Part shown: positions 2,241 to 43,370 of the stretch, piece by piece
Layout of the letters: each line of letters begins with the position of its first letter
Position numbering within the stretch: the first letter of the stretch is position 1
Source: a virus
Taxonomy: Duplodnaviria > Heunggongvirae > Uroviricota > Caudoviricetes
Reading direction: 5' to 3' (one strand)
Length of the DNA stretch: 64,000 nt
IMG/VR virus record: IMGVR_UViG_3300042544_001887
Translations under genes and position numbers: made by a program
Notes under the pieces: model-generated
Databases searched by the model: none
The model's input: only the letters and a program-made list of their open reading frames with translations
What the model was told of the DNA's origin: nothing

Positions 2241-2325
2241 GGGAGAGACGCCTCAAGGTGAGGCAGTGGATTGTAAATCCATCGCGGCAACGCACGGACG
2301 GGTTCGATTCCCTCCTCTCCCACCA
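2241..2325 (+). tRNA. tRNA-Tyr (GTA), type II
   Basis: acceptor gggagag/ctctccc, loop ttGTAaa, long variable arm, T-loop ttcgatt, CCA. Confidence 0.65.
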
Positions 2326-3187: not shown

Positions 3188-3781
3188 TTATTGTACTTTT
3201 TTACTTAATACTCTGTATATGTCGTTATAGTTATTTTTATATTTCGACTCATTGACAATTTCGTAGTTATATAATTGGTTTAATACCTTTAAACCATGTA
3301 TTCCATCTTTAGTATCTAATTGATTGCATGTACCTATTACATGATCTGACAATGACAAACTATAATCAAATAGTTCTTCCCAAGTATTATTATATGGATA
3401 CAGTTCTATAATTACCATTTGATGTTTTTTAGTGTAATTAAAAAAATCACATTTCATAGCTGTGATGTTTGGGTAGTTGTGCATTGTGTTAAACAGTGCT
3501 AGGGTGTTTTGTTTTTTTAAAAACTTATCCGCACAAGTCATCTTATGAAGATCACGCAACTCTTCGTATGTTTCAATATAGTGAAACGTATCTATTGCAG
3601 TAACATGTGTCTTTGGAAATGAACGACAAATTGCCGCAGCAACTCTGCCGCCAAATGTGCCAGCACACAAAACGTCACGTATATCATTGTTTGATATATG
3701 ATCGCAAATATTAACTATTTCCTCGTATCCAGTCCAATTTGGAAAGTCCATTAGTATATTATATTTGCTTTTATATGACAT
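3188..3781 (-). CDS. hypothetical protein (possible SAM-dependent methyltransferase-like; VLCAGTFGG)
   Basis: 197-aa ORF, only - strand gene nearby; glycine-rich motif I-like stretch. Confidence 0.4.
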   Translation of the reverse strand: MSYKSKYNILMDFPNWTGYEEIVNICDHISNNDIRDVLCAGTFGGRVAAAICRSFPKTHVTAIDTFHYIETYEELRDLHKMTCADKFLKKQNTLALFNTMHNYPNITAMKCDFFNYTKKHQMVIIELYPYNNTWEELFDYSLSLSDHVIGTCNQLDTKDGIHGLKVLNQLYNYEIVNESKYKNNYNDIYRVLSKKVQ

Positions 3782-5302: not shown

Positions 5303-5746
5303 ATGAAAATCGAATATCGTAAAGGCAACATGTTTGAAACTGACATCCTGCATATTGCACATGGCTGCAATGCACAAGGTGTTATGGGATCTGGCGTTGC
5401 TAAGATTGTAAAAGAAGATTACTTTGATGCATATCGTTTCTACGCAGAACAGTACGACGAGCATGGACTTAAATTAGGAGATGTGCAGTTTGTTCCTGCA
5501 AACGGCAAAGTAATCATCAATGCTGTTACGCAGAATCTGTACGGCAAAGACGGTCGTCGTTTTGTTAATTACGAAGCAGTTGCAGAGTGCATGAGAACTA
5601 TTAATAGTGTACTTAAGCAAAGTGGCGAAACTCATGTTGCTATGCCGCAAATTGGTGCCGGCCTTGGTGGCGGCGATTGGCGTGTGATTGAAGCAATCAT
5701 TGAAAGCGAAATGACAGACATTCAACCTGTGGTGTATGTACTGTGA
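5303..5746 (+). CDS. macro domain protein (ADP-ribose binding/processing)
   Basis: 147 aa; NAAN-like and glycine-rich GVMGSGVA motifs of macro domains. Confidence 0.65.
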   Translation: MKIEYRKGNMFETDILHIAHGCNAQGVMGSGVAKIVKEDYFDAYRFYAEQYDEHGLKLGDVQFVPANGKVIINAVTQNLYGKDGRRFVNYEAVAECMRTINSVLKQSGETHVAMPQIGAGLGGGDWRVIEAIIESEMTDIQPVVYVL

Positions 5747-5919
5747 CAACACCCTTAGCAGATCAGAAGATATTCTCACTCAATGATCTCATTGAAATGG
5801 GTCTTATTACACGTAAACAGTTAGAAGATCACATCCGATACATGGAAGCAAAACAGTTAGTAAAAGAACTGTTTCCAGGAATGTTTTAAAAATAAAGAAT
5901 AGGTAGCCGCGACTACCTT

Positions 5920-6058: not shown

Positions 6059-6134
6059 GCCTTCGTAGCTCAACTGGAAGAGCAAGGGATTTCTACTCCC
6101 TAGGTTGTGGGTTCGACTCCTGCCGGGGGCACCA
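6059..6134 (+). tRNA. tRNA-Arg (TCT)
   Basis: acceptor gccttcg/cgggggc (2 GU), loop ttTCTac, T-loop ttcgact, CCA. Confidence 0.65.
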
Positions 6135-9055: not shown

Positions 9056-9628
9056 ATGTGTAAGTTAGTTTTTGTTTATAGTTCTATGAATTCCGGTAAA
9101 AGCCTAGCTGTTCTTACCAAAAATTATATGTTAAAAGAAAAAGGTTTTAAGACTGTGCTCATGAAGCCGGCAGTTGATACTAGGACTGCGGCAACTGTGG
9201 CTACACGCTTAGGCTTAGAAGAGCCCTGTGTTGTACTAGGAACAACTGATTTGCCTAGTCATACTATACTAAAATCAGCACACGACAAGCCTGATTTTAT
9301 TATTGTTGACGAAGCACAGTTTTTAACAAGCGAACAAGTTTGGGACCTAGCTGGCTTAGTCGACAACTGGGGCATAAACGTGTATTGCTATGGTCTACGA
9401 CTTAACTGGCAAGGAGAGTTTTTTACAGGATCGGAAGCACTGATGAAAATTGCTGATGTGCTAGAACCAATCGAAAACTTCTGTCAAATAAATAAAGGAG
9501 CACTAGCATTCTTTCATATTAAAAAAGCAGGTGGCGATAATCCTGTAGAAGTTGGAATGGAAGACATGTATGACACTGCGTCTAGAAAAGCCTGGAAGCA
9601 GTGGTATGACACAAAAAGGCCTCTGTAG
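9056..9628 (+). CDS. tdk: thymidine kinase
   Basis: P-loop VYSSMNSGKS and TK architecture; 190 aa; TAG stop lies inside following tRNA. Confidence 0.85.
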   Translation: MCKLVFVYSSMNSGKSLAVLTKNYMLKEKGFKTVLMKPAVDTRTAATVATRLGLEEPCVVLGTTDLPSHTILKSAHDKPDFIIVDEAQFLTSEQVWDLAGLVDNWGINVYCYGLRLNWQGEFFTGSEALMKIADVLEPIENFCQINKGALAFFHIKKAGGDNPVEVGMEDMYDTASRKAWKQWYDTKRPL

Positions 9629-36288: not shown

Positions 36289-36702
36289 ATGGCTAAAACG
36301 TTCAACTGTTTAAATTGTAGTAAAGAAAGTAAATGGAGTTATAGCAGCACTAACAAGTATTGCAGCGGCGATTGCTTTCAAGAACACAAATGGAAAACTG
36401 TAAAAAAACTTGAAGTAGAAGCAGGGTTAGTCAATGACGGAAGCCCTGCGTTAAAAAAATACCTTGTTGAAACAAAAGGTGAATGCTGTGAAGAGTGCAA
36501 AGTTGGCACTGTTTACAACGGAAAGCCATTAACACTAACTGTTGATCATATTGATGGTAATAGTGATAATAACTTTCCAGGCAACCTTAGACTTTTATGT
36601 CCTAATTGTCACAGTCAAACTGAAACATACAAAGGACGAAACAAAAAGAATAGTGCTCGTTCTCGATATATGAGAAAGTATAGAGATAATTTGCGGAATT
36701 AG
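36289..36702 (+). CDS. HNH homing endonuclease
   Basis: CxxC...CEECK...HIDGNSDNNFPGNLRLLCPNCH HNH motif; AGGAG RBS; embedded in tRNA cluster. Confidence 0.8.
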   Translation: MAKTFNCLNCSKESKWSYSSTNKYCSGDCFQEHKWKTVKKLEVEAGLVNDGSPALKKYLVETKGECCEECKVGTVYNGKPLTLTVDHIDGNSDNNFPGNLRLLCPNCHSQTETYKGRNKKNSARSRYMRKYRDNLRN

Positions 36703-36767
36703 CTCAGTGGTAGAGCAGGGGTTTTACACACCTCAGGCCGGGAGTTCGACCCTCTCATTCCGCACCA
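36693..36767 (+). tRNA. tRNA-Val (TAC)
   Basis: acceptor gcggaat/attccgc, loop ttTACac, T-loop ttcgacc, CCA; 5' end overlaps HNH stop. Confidence 0.7.
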
Positions 36768-36769
36768 AG

Positions 36770-36871
36770 TTTAGACTGGATATAATCACCCCTTGTGAGG
36801 GTGGCCCAAGGACTCAGTAACGAGATACAGCGAAGGGTTGTTGGTCAAGGCTGCAAACAGCCCAGTCTAAA
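36770..36871 (+). ncRNA. structured spacer RNA closed by 10-bp stem (tttagactgg/ccagtctaaa)
   Basis: perfect long-range stem with internal hairpins (cacccttgtgagggtg, ggctgcaaacagcc). Confidence 0.35.
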
Positions 36872-36878
36872 GCAATAC

Positions 36879-36967
36879 GGACACTTGGCAGAGATGGATT
36901 ATTGCACCGGTCTTGAAAACCGACGAACCGCAAGGTTCCCAGGGTTCGAATCCCTGAGTGTCCGCCA
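36879..36967 (+). tRNA. tRNA-Ser (TGA), type II
   Basis: acceptor ggacact/agtgtcc, loop ctTGAaa, long variable arm, T-loop ttcgaat, CCA. Confidence 0.65.
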
Positions 36968-37043
36968 TAAGCACACTAGCATCAGGCTAGTCCAGACCGT
37001 AAGGTTAACGGTGACAAGCGGGGAGAGACCCGCACAAAAATAC

Positions 37044-37120
37044 GGCCTGTTAGTCGAGTGGTTTAAGATGCCTGCCTGTCACGCAGGAGATGATGGGTTC
37101 AATTCCCATACAGGTCGCCA
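37044..37120 (+). tRNA. tRNA-Asp (GTC)
   Basis: acceptor ggcctgt/acaggtc, stem cctgc/gcagg loop ctGTCac, T-loop ttcaatt, CCA. Confidence 0.7.
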
Positions 37121-37135
37121 AATTGAAAGGAAGGC

Positions 37136-37233
37136 TCATAGTTTACGTTTAGCCCGTTACGACGGTTTGGGCGGAAAATGGTTGAGTCACGGCACGGGCG
37201 GGTCGGGGGCTGCGTGACGGCATTGAACTATGA
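37136..37233 (+). ncRNA. structured spacer RNA closed by 8-bp stem (tcatagtt/aactatga)
   Basis: long-range stem plus GC-rich hairpin gtcacg...cgtgac. Confidence 0.3.
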
Positions 37234-37272
37234 AGCAGTTGTCGGTCTGCGTTAACAAACACCGTCAAAATT

Positions 37273-37346
37273 GCGGGTATGGTGTAGCGGTAACATGCGA
37301 GCCTTCCAAGCTCTTGTCACGAGTTCGAATCTCGTTACCCGCTCCA
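37273..37346 (+). tRNA. tRNA-Gly (TCC)
   Basis: acceptor gcgggta/tacccgc, loop ctTCCaa, T-loop ttcgaat, CCA. Confidence 0.7.
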
Positions 37347-37371
37347 ATTTATCCGTATGTGAGAGGACAAT

Positions 37372-37638
37372 ATGAAAACAGAAGATGAAAAGAGAGAATT
37401 TTACGAGCGTTGCTCCTCTATGTTAGGAATAGCTCACGTTTACAACACGCCAGTTCCACGACGCAATAGATGGAACGCAAGACGACTGGGCAACGGACGT
37501 TATCCAGGATTTGGACTAATACAGTGCTACGGAAACGGAGCAAGAGTAGTTAGTCGACAAGGAACACGTATGTTTTATACATACGAAGCAGTTTATGAAT
37601 ATTTGCAGATTGTGCTTGACGCAACTGCAAAAGCGTAG
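37372..37638 (+). CDS. hypothetical protein inside tRNA cluster
   Basis: 88 aa, GAGAGGACAATATG RBS. Confidence 0.45.
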   Translation: MKTEDEKREFYERCSSMLGIAHVYNTPVPRRNRWNARRLGNGRYPGFGLIQCYGNGARVVSRQGTRMFYTYEAVYEYLQIVLDATAKA

Positions 37639-37653
37639 TATAAAAACTATAAC

Positions 37654-37729
37654 GCCCTTATAGCTCAGCTGGTAGAGCATCTGATTTGTAATCAGAGGGT
37701 CGGCGGTTCAAGTCCGTCTGGGGGCACCA
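37654..37729 (+). tRNA. tRNA-Thr (TGT)
   Basis: acceptor gccctta/tgggggc, stem tctga/tcaga loop ttTGTaa, T-loop ttcaagt, CCA. Confidence 0.7.
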
Positions 37730-37736
37730 AAATTAT

Positions 37737-37812
37737 GTCGCGTTAGCAAAAGGTTAATGCGTGTCCTGTGCAAAGGACAAGGACGGTGGTTAAACTCCCC
37801 GACGCGACTCCA
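37737..37812 (+). ncRNA. atypical tRNA-like gene (perfect acceptor+CCA, 8-nt anticodon-position loop, degenerate T-arm)
   Basis: acceptor gtcgcgt/acgcgac, D-stem gca/tgc, stem tgtcc/ggaca with loop tgtgcaaa, no TTC T-loop. Confidence 0.35.
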
Positions 37813-37818
37813 AATAAT

Positions 37819-37900
37819 GCGGATGTGGTGTAATGGTAGCCACGCTGGTCTTAGAAGCCAGTGCGTAAGCGTGAGAGTTCGAGTCTCTCCATCCGCACCA
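37819..37900 (+). tRNA. tRNA-Leu (TAG), type II
   Basis: acceptor gcggatg/catccgc, loop ctTAGaa, long variable arm, T-loop ttcgagt, CCA. Confidence 0.7.
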
Positions 37901-37944
37901 AAATATTTCTTATCTTAAAAAGTTTTAAATTTAGAAAGATTAAC

Positions 37945-38388
37945 ATGCAATTTTATGAAAAAGTAACTTTTTTACCAAGCATTCCAGAAGGTTTAATAAA
38001 ACCTTTAGATATAATCGAATCGATGCCGAATGTTTTTCCAGATCCGGATTACGCTCATACTTATGCCAGCTATAAGGCAAATGACGATTTACAAGCTTGG
38101 GCACAAAGTTATTTTGACTTTCCTGTACTTGCAAGATATCAGGTGATTAAACAACAATTGCCTATTCATGTTGACGTTGGAATTGTAGGAATAAAATATA
38201 ACTACCTTATTAGCAGGGGTGGTGACGATGTAAAAACAAGATGGTGGGATAGTGTAGAAAATCCTTCAAAAATACTTTTTGAAACTACTTCGCCATTACG
38301 TGTGTGGCACAGCTTAAACATCGAAGTGCCACACGATATAACAGAAATTAGTTATCCTAGAATTAGTGTAACTATAAGAAAAAAATAG
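37945..38388 (+). CDS. hypothetical protein
   Basis: first ATG after tRNA-Leu; track ORF start overlaps the tRNA. Confidence 0.4.
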   Translation: MQFYEKVTFLPSIPEGLIKPLDIIESMPNVFPDPDYAHTYASYKANDDLQAWAQSYFDFPVLARYQVIKQQLPIHVDVGIVGIKYNYLISRGGDDVKTRWWDSVENPSKILFETTSPLRVWHSLNIEVPHDITEISYPRISVTIRKK

Positions 38389-38416
38389 TAATAACTTTTT
38401 TAAAGAAAAATACTGT

Positions 38417-38492
38417 TGGGAAGTAGCTCAATTGGTAGAGTAGCGGACTTTGAATCCGTTGGTTGGTGGTTCGAATCCACCCTTCCCAGCCA
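38417..38492 (+). tRNA. tRNA-Gln (TTG)
   Basis: U1-A72 acceptor tgggaag/cttccca, loop ctTTGaa, T-arm ggtgg-ttcgaat-ccacc, CCA. Confidence 0.7.
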
Positions 38493-38498
38493 AGATAT

Positions 38499-38575
38499 CG
38501 GAGTATAGCACAGCCTGGTAGTGCGATGGTTTTGGGTACCATAGGTCGAGGGTTCGAATCCTTCTACTCCGACCA
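38499..38575 (+). tRNA. tRNA-Pro (TGG)
   Basis: C1-G72 acceptor cggagta/tactccg, stem atggt/accat loop ttTGGgt, T-loop ttcgaat, CCA. Confidence 0.7.
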
Positions 38576-38792
38576 CGATTAAACTGTTGATCTAACCTCG
38601 GACTCGAACAAATAGCCATAGGCTTAGGCAGGTAGTACGGCGGATTAGTGTTAGACAACATTCGGACCAAGTAATCCGTGAGGTCCAGCTATTAGTGATG
38701 GCGGGGACGAACAAGCGGCTGATTTGGTATCAGTCGTGAGGCGGTAAGCTGCACCATAGGTGTCGTAGGCCGGGACTTGTTCAATTTATTAT

Positions 38793-38870
38793 CTGGGTAT
38801 AGCTCAGTCTGTGAAGAGTGCTCGCCTTGGAAGCGAGAGGTCGCTGGTTCAAATCCAGTTACCCAGACCA
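38793..38870 (+). tRNA. tRNA with TGG-type anticodon loop (second Pro-like, identity uncertain)
   Basis: acceptor ctgggta/tacccag, stem ctcgc/gcgag loop ctTGGaa, T-loop ttcaaat, CCA. Confidence 0.5.
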
Positions 38871-38877
38871 AAATAAC

Positions 38878-38952
38878 GCGGTGTTGGACAAGATGGATTG
38901 TCAGAGGATTCTAAACCTTAGTAGGCAGGATCGTTACCTGTACGCCGCACCA
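38878..38952 (+). ncRNA. 75-nt tRNA-like gene with candidate CUA (amber-reading) anticodon and swapped A54/U58 T-loop
   Basis: perfect cloverleaf spacing 7/2/4/8/4/1/5/7/5/4/5/7/5/7+A+CCA; acceptor gcggtgt/acgccgc, D-arm gaca/tgtc, T-stem gcagg/cctgt loop atcgtta; anticodon stem weak (3 of 5 bp), loop ttCTAaa. Confidence 0.3.
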
Positions 38953-39065
38953 ATACACACATATGATGCCGTAGCCCGACGCTGGTATGTGTGAAACCTA
39001 AATATCGGGCATGTAATTTAATAAAGGAAAGAAAAATGTCGTAGATTGAATATGCTTGTAAAGAT

Positions 39066-39602
39066 GTGGTGTTCCACTTTAACAAAAAACACTTGGAAGA
39101 TGAAACTATTCCGATGTGGGTGATTAAGTTTCGAGGCGAAACCTATTATGTAAATCATGTCGAATGTAGTGTTCCGTGGAGTACAAAAGAAACGCCTGAT
39201 AACAATCACACTAAAGGCAGTATCAAAGTCAAGGATTGTTTAGTTATTATTGATGATGAGAACTGTGCTAACATTCGTGTGTTAACTCCAGCAGATCGTT
39301 TGCGTCTTACTAAAGAACAAACTGTAAGAGTTATTACCGAGCAAGGAGCAAAACTGCGTACTGCACTACAGAACATGGCACATGGTCCGATTAAGTTAGC
39401 AGGTGGAGGATGTGGCACTACTTGGTATATCACAGATATTCCCAGTAAGAAACATTTAACAATACTACAACTACAGATTCCTTATATTAGGCAATTGATG
39501 CCCAATGAGGATTATTACAAGAAATATGATCAAACATCTTCAGATACTGAATGGTTAGATGATGATGACGACTACGAGTGGGAAGACCTTTATGAAAATT
39601 GA
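39066..39602 (+). CDS. hypothetical protein
   Basis: 178 aa. Confidence 0.45.
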   Translation: MVFHFNKKHLEDETIPMWVIKFRGETYYVNHVECSVPWSTKETPDNNHTKGSIKVKDCLVIIDDENCANIRVLTPADRLRLTKEQTVRVITEQGAKLRTALQNMAHGPIKLAGGGCGTTWYITDIPSKKHLTILQLQIPYIRQLMPNEDYYKKYDQTSSDTEWLDDDDDYEWEDLYEN

Positions 39603-39771
39603 AGTGCCTCACTCGTTACTAAAAGAAGTCTGTGCTACAATTCGTCAATTCAAATTAAGGCACGGGCCATTCTACAAACTGTTAAATAGCTATAGGATAT
39701 ATTTGTATCCAAGTAGTAAATTAAGTTTGTTTTTGATTAAACATTCTAGCACTGTTACAGTGCTAGAATAA
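39592..39771 (+). CDS. small hypothetical protein (59 aa)
   Basis: ATG overlapping upstream stop. Confidence 0.3.
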   Translation: MKIEVPHSLLKEVCATIRQFKLRHGPFYKLLNSYRIYLYPSSKLSLFLIKHSSTVTVLE

Positions 39772-39772
39772 T

Positions 39773-39847
39773 GCGGGCGTAGCTCAGGGGTAGAGCGTCA
39801 CCTTGCCAAGGTGAATGTCGTGGGTTCGAATCCCATCGCCCGCTCCA
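39773..39847 (+). tRNA. tRNA-Gly (GCC)
   Basis: acceptor gcgggcg/cgcccgc, stem tcacc/ggtga loop ttGCCaa, T-loop ttcgaat, CCA; preceded by 10-bp hairpin 39745-39768. Confidence 0.7.
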
Positions 39848-39865
39848 ATTGTTGAAAGATATTGT

Positions 39866-40447
39866 ATGAGTAAAATAGAGCACTTTTATCATCTTCCGCA
39901 CTTCGAAGAAGAATGGTTTACATATTCGGCTTTATATTCTGATATGGTAGCTAAATTTCCATCCGGAAGTAAGTTTGTTGAAGTCGGTTGTTGGAAGGGA
40001 AGATCTGCTGCTTATATGTGTGTAGAAATTGCTAATTCAAAAAAAGACATTGATTTTTATTGTGTTGACTTTTGGCATGTATCAGCAGAGCATGAAATAG
40101 AAGAACCCCATCTAAAAAATTTGTATGAAATTTTTCTTTCTAATATGAAACCAGTTGAAGCTTTTTATAAGCCAATGAAAATACCGTCGTCTGATGCTGC
40201 AAAAAAATTTAAAGACGAAAGTTTAGATTTTGTTTTTATTGATGCTGGACATCAATACGATGAAGTAAAAGATGATATTCTTGCATGGTATCCAAAAATT
40301 AAAAAAGGTGGCATACTAGCAGGACATGATTTTTATCCAACTGAGCCAACTTGGGGAGATGTTTCTAAAGTAGTAAACGAACTTTTTCCAAATAATTATG
40401 AAGTTTTAATAGAACAAAGTTGCTTTCTAGTAAATAAGCCGGTATAG
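39866..40447 (+). CDS. class I SAM-dependent methyltransferase (CmcI/TylF-like)
   Basis: VEVGCWKGRSAAYM motif I-like, FIDAGHQYDEV, GGILAGHDF; stop overlaps next tRNA. Confidence 0.5.
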   Translation: MSKIEHFYHLPHFEEEWFTYSALYSDMVAKFPSGSKFVEVGCWKGRSAAYMCVEIANSKKDIDFYCVDFWHVSAEHEIEEPHLKNLYEIFLSNMKPVEAFYKPMKIPSSDAAKKFKDESLDFVFIDAGHQYDEVKDDILAWYPKIKKGGILAGHDFYPTEPTWGDVSKVVNELFPNNYEVLIEQSCFLVNKPV

Positions 40448-40511
40448 CTGAGTGGTTTAGCAGCTGATTAGTAATCAGCTGACGGGAGTTCGATTCTCTC
40501 TACCGGCACCA
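40438..40511 (+). tRNA. tRNA-Thr-like, apparent anticodon AGT (A34)
   Basis: acceptor gccggta/taccggc, stem gctga/tcagc loop ttAGTaa (part of 10-bp perfect palindrome), T-loop ttcgatt, CCA. Confidence 0.55.
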
Positions 40512-40546
40512 AATCTAAATTTTTTATTAATTAATAGGTATCCAAG

Positions 40547-41302
40547 TTGAAAATAGTCGACGAAAGAAAAGATCCAAATTTTGGAACAGTAATGAATTTT
40601 GAACATATTAGTTTGCCTCCTCAAGGGTATAACGGTAAACTGTTTTTAGATTTTTCTAAGTATGCTAATTTTGATTTTGAAAAAATGGATACAGAAATAT
40701 GTTTAGCATTATCAAAAATTGATTTAAATAAATATCCTATTGTTTCGGGGGTTATGCCTCCAAAATTAAAATACGGAATATTTGAAAATGAAGTAATGTA
40801 CAACTTTACTGGAGATAGAGAAAATTTAAAAAATCTTTCTCCAATGGAGATGCGTAAATTTTTGTTTTTTAAACACAAAACTCTTTTACCTTGGTTCTTT
40901 GTTGTAGACTTAAAACCGAGTCTCTTTTTTGAAAGATCGGAAGATAAACATCCGTGGAGCGAAGTTAGTAAACTTACTCCATATACAAGACAGTGCATTG
41001 AGAGTCTTCCTTTCAAATCAATAGGCAGAGTAGTTATATATGGATCTTGGCCACAAGCTGAAGTACCATGCCACAGAGATTGGATACCCGACGGTGTTTT
41101 CCATCATCATATAAATCTTAATCCTGGTGGATACAGACCAGTCTACATTTATGATCCTGAAACAGATACAAAGAATTATTTACCGGAAAGCTATAAGTTG
41201 TATGCTTATCAAACAACCGATTACCACGGCGTAGATGCTCTTACGCATTTTAGTTATACAATACGCATAGACGGAATTTATAATGACGACGTAGAATTGT
41301 AA
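40547..41302 (+). CDS. hypothetical protein (possible metal-binding HxD...H fold)
   Basis: 251 aa; PCHRDW and HHHINLN motifs only. Confidence 0.45.
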   Translation: MKIVDERKDPNFGTVMNFEHISLPPQGYNGKLFLDFSKYANFDFEKMDTEICLALSKIDLNKYPIVSGVMPPKLKYGIFENEVMYNFTGDRENLKNLSPMEMRKFLFFKHKTLLPWFFVVDLKPSLFFERSEDKHPWSEVSKLTPYTRQCIESLPFKSIGRVVIYGSWPQAEVPCHRDWIPDGVFHHHINLNPGGYRPVYIYDPETDTKNYLPESYKLYAYQTTDYHGVDALTHFSYTIRIDGIYNDDVEL

Positions 41303-41376
41303 TTTACAAATTTGAAAACGTTAAAAAACGATAATATAAATACTGTAAATTATTAACAAATAGTGAAATATATAAA

Positions 41377-42138
41377 ATGAATTATCACATAAAAAACTTT
41401 ATTATCCCTATACATGTCTTATTTTTAGTATCACTAATTGGTATGTATTTAAATATAATCGATTTTCATATTTGGTTATTTTTAATAGGGTGGACTTTGA
41501 TCTATGGGCTAGGTCTTGTTGTAGGATTTCATAAATTGTTATCCCATAGCTCTTTTAAAACAAACAAATACATATCTTATGTGTTAGCTTACTTAGGATG
41601 CTTAGGAATTAGCGGATCACCTATATGGTGGGCTGCTATACATAGAGGACATCATCATGCTCATACTGAGACTGAAAAAGACCTTCAAAGTCCACGTCGT
41701 GGATGGCTTACATCTTACATAGGTTGGCAGTTTGGTGAAGAAACAAGTAAAATAAGTTTAAAGTATGCATCTGATTTAATAAAAGATCCTTTTTATCTTT
41801 TTTTACACAAGAATTATAGATTAGTTGTTTGGAGTACAGTGATTATTGTTGGTATGTTGTCACCATCTGTTGCAGTTTCATTATTAATATTTCCGATGAT
41901 TGCAGCACACCATGGAGAAAATATTACCAATTCATTTGGTCATAGCAGGTTTGCTGGTTACAGAAATTTTAATACCAACGACGACACTATAAATAACCCA
42001 TTGTTAGCATTTATAACTTGGGGTCAGCTTTTGCATAACAATCATCATGCTAAGCCAAATAACGATAGTTTTGCCATTAAATGGTTTGAATTTGATCCAA
42101 CTTCTCCTTTTGTATGGATTTTAAAAAAACTAAAATAG
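41377..42138 (+). CDS. membrane fatty-acid desaturase (stearoyl-CoA desaturase-like)
   Basis: three His boxes HKLLSH, HRGHHHAH, HNNHHAKP plus TM helices. Confidence 0.75.
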   Translation: MNYHIKNFIIPIHVLFLVSLIGMYLNIIDFHIWLFLIGWTLIYGLGLVVGFHKLLSHSSFKTNKYISYVLAYLGCLGISGSPIWWAAIHRGHHHAHTETEKDLQSPRRGWLTSYIGWQFGEETSKISLKYASDLIKDPFYLFLHKNYRLVVWSTVIIVGMLSPSVAVSLLIFPMIAAHHGENITNSFGHSRFAGYRNFNTNDDTINNPLLAFITWGQLLHNNHHAKPNNDSFAIKWFEFDPTSPFVWILKKLK

Positions 42139-42269: not shown

Positions 42270-43370
42270 TTAGTAACTTAACTGCAATAATCAACAGTTT
42301 AGCGAAAGGCTAAAGATTGTGGTTGTGCTGAGTAATTAACAGTTTAAATCAGCAAGTGATGCGTGATTAGGTAAACTGTTGTTTATTGCAGTTTTTAAGA
42401 TGGGCGGCTTAGCGTCCACGTAAGGGTAAGTGCGGTAACGCACCCAAAGGCAGGTTTCCTATAAACTGCCGCCAGCAATGGTCCACCTAAGCAAGCCTGA
42501 ACTAAGGTTGACTCGGTTTAACCCGAAAGCAACCTCCGTCCTTAGGCGGGCGGTAGGCAGTAAGTTAGAGTTGTAGTCCGAAAGGATAGGCACAGAGCCG
42601 GTCGGTGAGTGCTAAGAGGCTGTGGTGGCTGAACTGCAACATACCAAACTAACGAATGCTGAAGGTTAACAGGTAGCTACACTGTCTGAGCCCGCAAGCA
42701 AAGGCATGGTAGCATCACAAGAGTGGAAGGGTTAGGCCCCGGATACTTGAAGTGACGTTGAGTAGCTCGCAAGGCAAAAGACAGTCGGTGTGTTGTATAC
42801 TGTATCTAACAAGGTATGGTGCAACTGGGACAGCACATCGAAGTAGGTTCGCAATATTGCATAACGGTAATGCAATCGTCTTATGAAACGATGGATTGTA
42901 GGTTCAACTCCTACTATTGAAACAAAAGCGAAAGACTGTCCCGGTACGTTGTGAAAGGTGGTTAATGCCACACTCGCAAGAGAATGTGGTCTACGGATGC
43001 TCGCAAGGCTGATGTAGTTGTTCGGAAAGATAGCGTAAGGGTTTAGCGACTCTGAACTGCTCGCAAGGCAGACGAAGGATAGAAGGACGAGTAGCAACGT
43101 GCGACGAGAGAAACGCCACTCTCCAAAAAAGGCACCACTGGGAGATACAGGATGACCGTAAAAGGCTTCTGTGGATAACGAGAGAACGTGGCTCGCAAGG
43201 CTAACGGTAATGCTCAAAGGCTCCTAACGCAAGGCATAATCTCAGCCTATGCAAAAGTTTAAGTTTTAACTAACTTAACTTGTTGAACAGTTTTCGAGTT
43301 CCGACCCACTTGGAAGTAGGCGACTACTCCATTTCCGAGACTGTTCAACTAGTTAAGTTTCTACTTTAAA
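42270..43370 (+). ncRNA. large structured non-coding RNA candidate (about 1.1 kb, ORF-free, GNRA-rich)
   Basis: no credible ORF on either strand; seven cgcaag motifs, four as GCTCGCAAGGC; many local and long-range stems; lies between boxA leader and tRNAs. Confidence 0.4.

Follow-up and report, generated by a model that had tools for sequence, protein, structure and literature searches.

A noncanonical tRNA-like gene in tailed-phage DNA as a putative amber suppressor for an adjacent gene with a conserved early TAG codon

Features of the locus

We analyzed a 64,000-nucleotide stretch of tailed-phage DNA (IMG/VR record IMGVR_UViG_3300042544_001887; Caudoviricetes), hereafter called the window, with a focus on a 75-nt tRNA-like element that an earlier note had described and on the gene directly downstream, which we call gene X. 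The features of the locus are as follows.

38878-38952, plus strand: noncanonical tRNA-like gene, putative amber suppressor tRNA(CUA), 75 nt with an encoded CCA
38904-38919, plus strand: anticodon arm, with a 4-bp stem (38904-38907 with 38916-38919) given by the minimum free energy (MFE) fold and by covariation
38908-38915, plus strand: 8-nt anticodon loop AUUCUAAA, with CUA at 38911-38913, U before it and AA after it
38930-38936, plus strand: T-loop AUCGUUA, with U55 and C56 kept and 54/58 swapped to A-U
38953-39035, plus strand: spacer from the tRNA-like gene to X, 83 nt, 78-86% identical in related loci
39024-39031, plus strand: Shine-Dalgarno-like sequence AAGGAAAG, within the spacer, 4 nt before the ATG
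39036-39044, plus strand: putative amber gate ATG TCG TAG, with the in-frame TAG at 39042-39044, followed by A
39036-39602, plus strand: gene X, 188 codons with the in-frame TAG counted, TGA stop

The element folds as a cloverleaf with an enlarged anticodon loop

The element reads GCGGTGT TG GACA AGATGGAT TGTC A GAGGA TTCTAAA CCTTA GTAG GCAGG ATCGTTA CCTGT ACGCCGC A CCA, and a direct reading bears out the cloverleaf that had been proposed, together with the discriminator A and the encoded CCA. The acceptor stem has the 7 bp claimed for it but is not perfect, as it consists of six Watson-Crick pairs and one U5.G wobble. Two bases (UG) lie between the acceptor and D stems, the D-loop is 8 nt long and carries G18 G19, and the variable region comprises 4-5 nt. 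The nucleotides of the tertiary interactions (U8, A14, G18G19, U55, and C56) are present, with 54/58 being A-U, not U-A. The MFE fold of the isolated RNA is the cloverleaf (-24.5 kcal/mol, z=-2.07), and the Rfam alignment covers the full tRNA model, positions 1-71, although Rfam does not list the candidate at its gathering threshold. A relaxed search, suggested earlier as a check, did call the element (ARAGORN, -ps90), but as tRNA-?(Arg|Pyl)(ct) with a 6-nt loop.

In the anticodon arm, the canonical register gives the loop UUCUAAA and the mismatches G27xA43 and A31xC39, just as the earlier note had it; a 7-nt loop on a 5-bp stem is not satisfied, with only 3/5 pairs being formed. The mismatches therefore stand, but the weakness attributed to the stem does not, since a conserved stem of 4 bp closing an 8-nt loop describes the arm better. 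CUA in the loop is preceded by U33 and followed by a 3' purine, as a suppressor anticodon should be. Taken alone, the element is borderline; because it is conserved and covarying in relatives, it is more than a chance resemblance.

Relatives show conserved pairing and belong to the CUA family

Searching IMG/VR through gene X gave 24 loci on contigs of up to 382 kb (related loci are labeled here with L numbers). A tRNA with a UCUAA anticodon loop adjoins X in almost all of them. Most lineages have an ordinary tRNA there, called (cta) by ARAGORN with default settings, and the lineage of the window has the remodeled form, UCUAA being common to both. The exact 25-mer of the T-arm and acceptor was absent from IMG/VR, and a degenerate pattern search there returned only the loci already found via X. 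The degenerate search of a metagenome collection gave 13 stretches, two of which (L041 and L045) were chance matches, and yielded further remodeled copies, the one in L038 being identical to that of the window.

The covariation set comprised 11 distinct sequences of the remodeled subtype. Across these, 100% of cells in the acceptor, D, 4-bp anticodon, and T stems were paired, and seven stem pairs were changed on both sides; slid-register controls paired about 40% of cells, and 0/500 shuffles matched the observed pairing or covariation score. The 4-bp anticodon stem takes the pairs G.U/A-U, A-U/G-C, G-C, and G-C, again with all cells paired, and the loop is AUUCUAA[A/C] across the subtype, with UUCUAA invariant in 11/11 sequences. 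Covariation and the MFE fold together favor a 4-bp stem with an 8-nt loop over the 5-bp register. The T-loop has A54 and U58 as claimed, and the suggestion of a compensatory swap holds up: relatives have UUCGAUA (U54-A58), CUCGAUA (C54.A58), and AUCGUUA (A54-U58), which can be read as a real evolutionary series.

These data bear on the option, also raised earlier, that the element is a decaying tRNA pseudogene, with X being made via a downstream start or its TAG being read by a suppressor elsewhere in the genome. The subthreshold Rfam and ARAGORN scores and the several noncanonical features would fit decay, a GTG GTG at 39066 could serve as the start of X, and only part of the genome is visible. 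However, the stems are fully paired with compensatory changes even though the X proteins of the loci differ by 15-40%; U8, A14, G18G19, U55, and C56 are kept, the 54/58 pair covaries, and no CUA tRNA besides the candidate was found by ARAGORN or Rfam among the 35 tRNA genes of the window. Because all helices stay paired with compensatory changes over 11 relatives, we rejected a decaying pseudogene, and the explanation as a whole is highly improbable. The cloverleaf of the RNA is under selection, and the element is almost certainly a functional, selected tRNA-like RNA.

When 212 tRNAs from the window and the loci were compared, the closest relatives of the candidate outside its subtype were canonical CUA tRNAs, not Arg or any other isoacceptor. 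The element occupies the slot of canonical tRNA(CUA) genes, which it resembles most. Its stem mismatches have parallels there as well. A fully paired 5-bp anticodon stem occurs in 4/33 distinct CUA-type tRNAs, the 31x39 mismatch occurs in 27/33, and phage XacN1 has two annotated tRNA-Sup genes with the same 27x43/31x39 mismatch pattern; the two mismatches are the norm of the CUA tRNA family and do not indicate decay. For a CUA suppressor derived from tRNA-Thr, UAG read-through was reported to be better with a G27-A43 mismatch (PMC13092985), and natural tRNAs with 8-nt anticodon loops read triplets in yeast mitochondria (PMC3113583).

The same comparison weighs on a different identity for the element, that of a divergent tRNA-Arg(UCU) which presents the overlapping UCU of UUCUAA and lies near the TAG downstream by coincidence. 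For the closest relatives (L005 to L007, L025, and L026), the ARAGORN call is tRNA-Arg(tct), the anticodon arm of the 77-nt subtype, aligned by eye, approximates that of the phage's own tRNA-Arg(UCU) minus one U, and A20, which is an arginine identity element in E. coli, is present in the candidate. Nevertheless, the UCU register forms 3/5 pairs in the window's variant and is not maintained across subtypes, the covariation supporting the 4-bp stem and 8-nt loop instead. The window (6059-6134), L006, and L007 already have a canonical tRNA-Arg(UCU), the nearest relatives outside the subtype are not Arg tRNAs, CUA tRNAs hold the slot in other lineages, and the TAG of X is kept wherever this subtype alone is present. 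We consider the arginine identity very unlikely.

A second, truncated tRNA-like sequence was observed in L024, between 6250 and 6779, upstream of its canonical tRNA(CUA). It reads GCGCCCGAAAGGCC...GGGCTTCTAACCCCC...CGGGCGCACCA and has a UUCUAAC loop but no normal D-arm.

Gene X carries a conserved amber codon directly after its start

Gene X begins with a Shine-Dalgarno (SD) sequence followed by ATG-TCG-TAG-ATT-GAA-TAT-GCT-TGT-AAA-GAT, so that TAG is codon 3; the native leader RNA is AAGGAAAGAAAA-AUG-UCG-UAG-AUU-GAA. The program that listed the open reading frames (ORFs) begins X at GTG 39066, 30 bases downstream of the in-frame ATG. The layout of an SD, ATG, 1-3 variable codons, TAG, and conserved residues was found in 22/24 IMG/VR loci, the conserved residues after the TAG being I-E-[YL]-A-C-[KR]-[DE]-x-V-F-H-F-N-K. 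An AAAGGAG-type SD precedes the ATG in nearly all X homologs shown, and the peptide ahead of the TAG is not conserved. Among 40 non-identical X loci, 32 have an in-frame TAG 1-4 codons after the ATG, and TAA or TGA was never found there (0 loci). The TAG is codon 3 in 25/32, and the base after it is A in 31/32. All 32 of these loci have a CUA-type tRNA in the fetched span, usually 130-440 nt upstream of X and sometimes just downstream. In the 64-kb window, the X leader is the only place where an SD and ATG are followed within 1-6 codons by TAG and a long ORF. A hairpin predicted over the leader was not significant (z=-1.66).

Every TAG-carrying homolog has a Cys after the TAG, upstream of any alternative start, and AlphaFold models place the residues that follow the TAG within beta-strand 1, with a predicted local distance difference test score of about 90. 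In L004 to L007, there is no ATG, GTG, or TTG between the TAG and the F-H-F-N-K motif. Because the invariant Cys and beta-strand 1 residues lie in this part and several homologs offer no alternative start, translation would have to begin at the ATG ahead of the TAG and read through it, which also argues against the downstream start considered above. The in-frame stop of X is conserved as TAG in particular, ahead of residues that are themselves conserved and required by the structure. A cultured phage has this arrangement as well: Rhizobium phage RHph_I1_18 has a short X, unannotated in GenBank, that reads M-S-E-F-M-TAG-N-E-S-C-R-E-V-I-F-H-F-N-K with 32 nt (locus 3205-3236) between it and a downstream gene annotated as 'tRNA-Pyl(cta)'.

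The leader could also be seen as a regulatory mini-ORF of 2-4 codons, ATG-NNN-TAG, that is not read through, X being made by re-initiation and the tRNA(CUA) having another role. Very short ORFs with strong SD sequences are known regulators, as exemplified by the lambda bar minigenes. The variability of the peptide before the TAG is in line with such a role, and the association with PTH2-like genes described below fits the biology of peptidyl-tRNA drop-off. A mini-ORF, however, would not require TAG, which is the stop in all 32 loci to the exclusion of TAA and TGA, nor the CUA tRNA that co-occurs in every one of them, and in phage Atu_ph07, where an early stop is TGA, the suppressor is UCA. In addition, the codon after the TAG is mostly ATT or ATA, which are poor starts located about 15 nt or more from the SD, and the residues directly after the TAG are conserved as part of beta-strand 1. 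We regard the mini-ORF explanation as unlikely.

The 8-nt anticodon loop and the A after the TAG in 31/32 loci also raise the idea of a +1 frameshift suppressor that reads the quadruplet UAGA. Against it, the conserved X protein is encoded in the frame of the ATG, which continues unshifted past the TAG (zero frame). A shift into the +1 frame at TAGA, as read from the sequence, would meet a stop after about 27 codons, and lineages with ordinary 7-nt CUA loops share the TAG-A context. An A after UAG is also reported to favor ordinary amber suppression in E. coli. Quadruplet decoding is extremely improbable here.

The X family comprises at least 1479 protein clusters, and none of those listed is annotated. 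The model of X has two domains, a beta-rich N-domain that suffices in the short forms and a C-domain with a ferredoxin-like fold, plus an acidic tail. X had no match in Pfam, PHROGs, or NCBIfam, nor in PDB by sequence or profile; in BFVD, it matched uncharacterized phage proteins only, and fold matches were weak. In bacterial and archaeal genomes, X occurred only on 5 contigs of metagenome-assembled genomes, which are probably mis-binned phage and gave no clue to the host.

Many database entries misrepresent the start of X. Proteins beginning 'MSQIEYACKD' owe their Q to a code-switching gene caller, the DNA having TAG at this position, and among the best 120 X protein clusters 58 have this Gln artifact and 33 are truncated. 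The entries P0002, P0060, and others come from short contigs that were called with an alternative code, so that a lone TAG was written as Gln (MSQIEY...). The artifact is systematic and makes standard-code phage fragments look recoded.

TAG remains a genuine stop codon in the window

The earlier remark that TAG stops are rare is borne out by the plus-strand ORFs of at least 80 amino acids, of which 9/77 end in TAG, compared with 45 in TAA and 23 in TGA; the thymidine kinase gene (9056-9628) and an HNH gene (36289-36702) do end in TAG, as had been noted. Under code 11, these ORFs cover 79% of the window and include proteins of 2097, 1186, and 1019 amino acids. The only credible in-frame TAG of the window is that at 39042, and in about 430 kb of related sequence, TAG did not join same-frame ORFs in excess. 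When leaders with an early stop were scanned for, gene X accounted for 27 hits, compared with 10 background hits for all stop codons together. Genome-wide TAG recoding (code 15) was therefore rejected, given the dense intact standard-code ORFs, the single in-frame TAG, and the lack of a TAG-junction excess. Apart from the early TAG of X, the window uses the standard code.

About seven TAG stops of the window are genuine, and all are followed by C or T. Five of them cluster in the tRNA region (36289-42138), where they end the genes for the HNH protein, two unknowns, a methyltransferase, and a fatty-acid-desaturase-like protein.

The element probably suppresses the amber codon of gene X

The proposal that the element is a nonsense suppressor thus gained support: its slot holds tRNA(CUA) in relatives, such tRNAs are its nearest kin among the 212 compared, and the next gene has a conserved in-frame TAG. 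We think it probable, on this comparative evidence, that the element is a functional, remodeled amber suppressor tRNA(CUA) that decodes the UAG of the adjacent gene X. We infer that the tRNA is expressed and charged and that the UAG is in fact read through, and we likewise infer what the gate is for. The candidate would be part of the transcript of the tRNA array around it, be processed down to the CCA that it encodes, and be charged by a host synthetase. The charged tRNA would then compete with release factor 1 at UAG codon 3 of X (39042-39044), and the output of full-length X would require, and scale with, suppressor activity, which would constitute a natural lock-and-key or feed-forward gate.

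Several observations weigh against this interpretation. The loop is noncanonical, and the register chosen by ARAGORN in L005 to L007, L025, and L026 presents UCU (Arg), not CUA. The bases at 54 and 58 are swapped, and G15/G48, as read from the sequence, does not form the canonical Levitt pair. The Rfam tRNA model (RF00005) scores the candidate at 27.8 bits, compared with a gathering score of 29 (E=0.0014 over 701 nt searched), and ARAGORN misses it at default settings. An active suppressor would also come at a cost, extending the roughly seven TAG-terminated proteins of the window by 0-35 residues. A C or T follows 17/23 genuine TAG stops, which differs weakly from TAA and TGA stops and is not a strong signal. 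Furthermore, five X loci without the TAG keep a tRNA(CUA) within 0.5-1.9 kb, so gating alone does not explain the linkage. Finally, the view covers 64 kb of the genome, and other CUA tRNA or TAG-bearing genes may lie elsewhere in it.

Loci without the TAG point to a translation-related module

Eight of the 40 non-identical X loci lack the early TAG. The rule that a locus without the TAG has no CUA tRNA held for L019, Atu_ph07, and Phosso, none of which has a CUA tRNA in the span (in the latter two, the X domain is fused to a longer protein), but it failed for L050, L052, L053, L058, and L024. Because of these five failures, we dropped gating as the sole cause of the linkage between X and the tRNA.

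In L050/L051 and L053, the gene immediately upstream of the TAG-less X itself starts with AAGGAG..ATG-TCx/CAA-TAG-ATT-GA. These genes (L050, 5606-5989, M-S-TAG-I-E; L053, 4903-5277, M-Q-TAG-I-D) resemble the peptidyl-tRNA hydrolase PTH2, with PF01981 as their sole Pfam match, at 16-21 bits and below the cut-off, and the tRNA(CUA) lies 0.9-1.4 kb upstream of them and 1.4-1.9 kb upstream of X. A clear PTH2 gene (72.9 bits) is present in Sinorhizobium phage Phosso (PV764938; L029, 1887-2381), where it begins ATG AAG TAT TAG, and its ortholog in Atu_ph07 (MF403008; L027, about 1930-2381) has an early TGA, in ATG ATT GGC GAA CAC TTT TGA. In both phages, conserved coding sequence lies upstream of the annotated Met, and the start appears to be earlier than annotated. 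Atu_ph07 has been reported to encode a single suppressor tRNA, with anticodon UCA (PMC6102473); we did not locate it, as a BLAST match with tRNA led to tRNA-Arg and tRNA-Asp.

Since X stays linked to tRNA(CUA) without the TAG, and since a PTH2-like neighbor carries the early TAG in two lineages, X and the suppressor seem to be parts of a translation- or termination-related module, in which the early stop would be a portable gate. Whether a lock-and-key module of this kind is widespread and previously unnoticed in large standard-code phages, with the type of stop matching the suppressor anticodon, strikes us as evenly balanced. The key would be a noncanonical suppressor tRNA, of a kind that tRNA finders often overlook or mislabel, and the lock would be translation-related genes (X and PTH2-type hydrolases) with a stop 2-7 codons after the start; the match would be TAG with CUA in the window and RHph_I1_18 and TGA with UCA in Atu_ph07.

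Other genes were seen beside X in some loci. In L011, L014, and L015 (about 5414-5825), a phage transfer-messenger RNA (tag ANDSSFALAA) lies directly upstream of X, and the tRNA(CUA) lies directly downstream. In L050 (7094-7486) and L051 (2118-2510), a gene for a 130-amino-acid protein with a ribosomal L7/L12 domain (PF00542) is located two genes downstream of X.

Comparison with known systems

Suppressor tRNAs of phages are already known as a kind. In the code-15 phages (Lak, crAss-like, and other gut phages), a phage tRNA(CUA) likewise occurs with in-frame TAG codons, which are read as Gln; suppression has been proposed there as a timing or regulatory device, and noncanonical suppressor tRNAs missed by standard tools were anticipated (Borges et al., bioRxiv 10.1101/2021.08.26.457843). 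Here, in contrast, there is no genome- or block-wise recoding, one gene in 64 kb has a single TAG, at codon 3 and beside the tRNA, and TAG is still a real stop. XacN1, with two tRNA-Sup(CUA), and Atu_ph07, with one tRNA-Sup(UCA), are closer in that they likewise have large myovirus-like genomes with dozens of tRNA genes. The authors of the XacN1 study found no suppressor target by reading through annotated TAG stops (PMC5852040), whereas the target proposed here is an unannotated stop two codons after the start, invisible to such an analysis. The first 50 kb of XacN1 contained neither gene X nor a leader with an early TAG, and the neighbors of its suppressor tRNA genes are unrelated to X.

Yeast mitochondrial tRNA-Thr1 and Ashbya mitochondrial tRNA-Ala likewise combine an 8-nt anticodon loop with a new meaning for a codon (PMC3113583, PMC3874161). 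They reassign sense CUN codons, however, whereas the candidate is a phage tRNA that is putatively directed to a stop codon.

The pyrrolysine system resembles the present case in that a CUA tRNA is linked to a conserved in-frame UAG, and ARAGORN and GenBank label such tRNAs 'tRNA-Pyl'. The pylT tRNA has a 6-bp anticodon stem, a 3-nt variable loop, a small D-loop without G18G19, and one base between the acceptor and D stems. In the candidate, UG forms the linker, the D-loop has 8 nt and includes GG, the variable region has 4-5 nt, and the anticodon stem has 4 bp; tRNA-Pyl was rejected. Unlike that of pyrrolysine genes, the UAG of X does not fall in an active site but near the N-terminus, at a position that is not conserved. 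No pyl genes turned up when 20 ORFs of the window were scanned with Pfam, although no systematic search for pylS or pylBCD was made.

Engineered amber gating and biocontainment share the logic of a gene that is silent unless an orthogonal suppressor tRNA is present; the present case differs in being natural and, judged by the size of the X family, widespread, and no dedicated synthetase was seen. What is new is the remodeled architecture, with its 8-nt anticodon loop and swapped 54/58 pair, and above all the dedicated, conserved pairing of a putative suppressor with a putatively amber-gated neighbor gene, a pairing that was not found in the full-text literature searched.

Gene X offers a candidate target for the orphan suppressor tRNAs of standard-code jumbo phages, a stated open question (PMC5852040). 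If the lock-and-key module is real, it would give such tRNAs a purpose and would form a feedback circuit that ties protein output to the balance between suppression and release factor, in effect a natural amber-gated gene circuit. The 8-nt loop and the swapped T-loop pair bear on suppressor tuning and tRNA engineering. There are also consequences for annotation, as tRNA finders miss this type of candidate or call it Arg or Pyl, and gene callers shorten X or switch whole short contigs to code 15 with spurious Gln. The cultured phages RHph_I1_18, Phosso, and Atu_ph07 are available for direct testing.

Setting of the locus and other tRNA genes of the window

The window has a G+C content of 39.7%, and the plus strand carries nearly all of its genes. 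Among the encoded proteins are thymidine kinase, DNA ligase, NAMPT, NMNAT-Nudix, HNH endonucleases, and products of ORFs of 1019-2097 amino acids; this gene content fits a large, tRNA-rich phage. Searches of a phage collection with the DNA of the locus and of 20 kb around it gave generic tRNA matches only and no close sequenced relative. A promoter and terminator scan around the locus gave no signal above shuffled expectation. ARAGORN found 33 tRNA genes in two clusters, and one more was found by Rfam only; the candidate has no close paralog among the 34 other tRNAs of the window. Its upstream neighbor is as follows.

38793-38870, plus strand: tRNA-Pro(UGG), ending 7 nt before the candidate, in the same-strand tandem tRNA array

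Upstream of this gene, 217 nt free of ORFs (38576-38792, plus strand) separate two tRNA-Pro(UGG) genes. L038 has an identical copy of this segment (100%), and the copies in L002 and L039 are 84-88% identical to it; Rfam gave no match, and the fold z-score is only -0.6.

Some other tRNAs of the window are unusual as well. The one at 2241-2322 (plus strand) is detected by Rfam (35 bits) and missed by ARAGORN, and its UUGUAAA loop and long variable arm indicate tRNA-Tyr(GUA); counting it, the tRNA set of the window covers all 20 amino acids. A conserved odd tRNA at 37737-37812 (plus strand), also present in L001 (3658-3733), has a 6-nt anticodon loop and a 3-bp D-stem; ARAGORN reads it as '(gc)', Ala|Cys, and Rfam scores it at 43.2 bits. 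A GOLLD RNA (Rfam RF02032) lies at 42785-43248 (plus strand), with 191.8 bits compared with a gathering score of 150. Embedded in it is an odd tRNA (42850-42923), found also in L001 (11422-11495), with an 8-nt anticodon loop in which ARAGORN reads 'tatg'.

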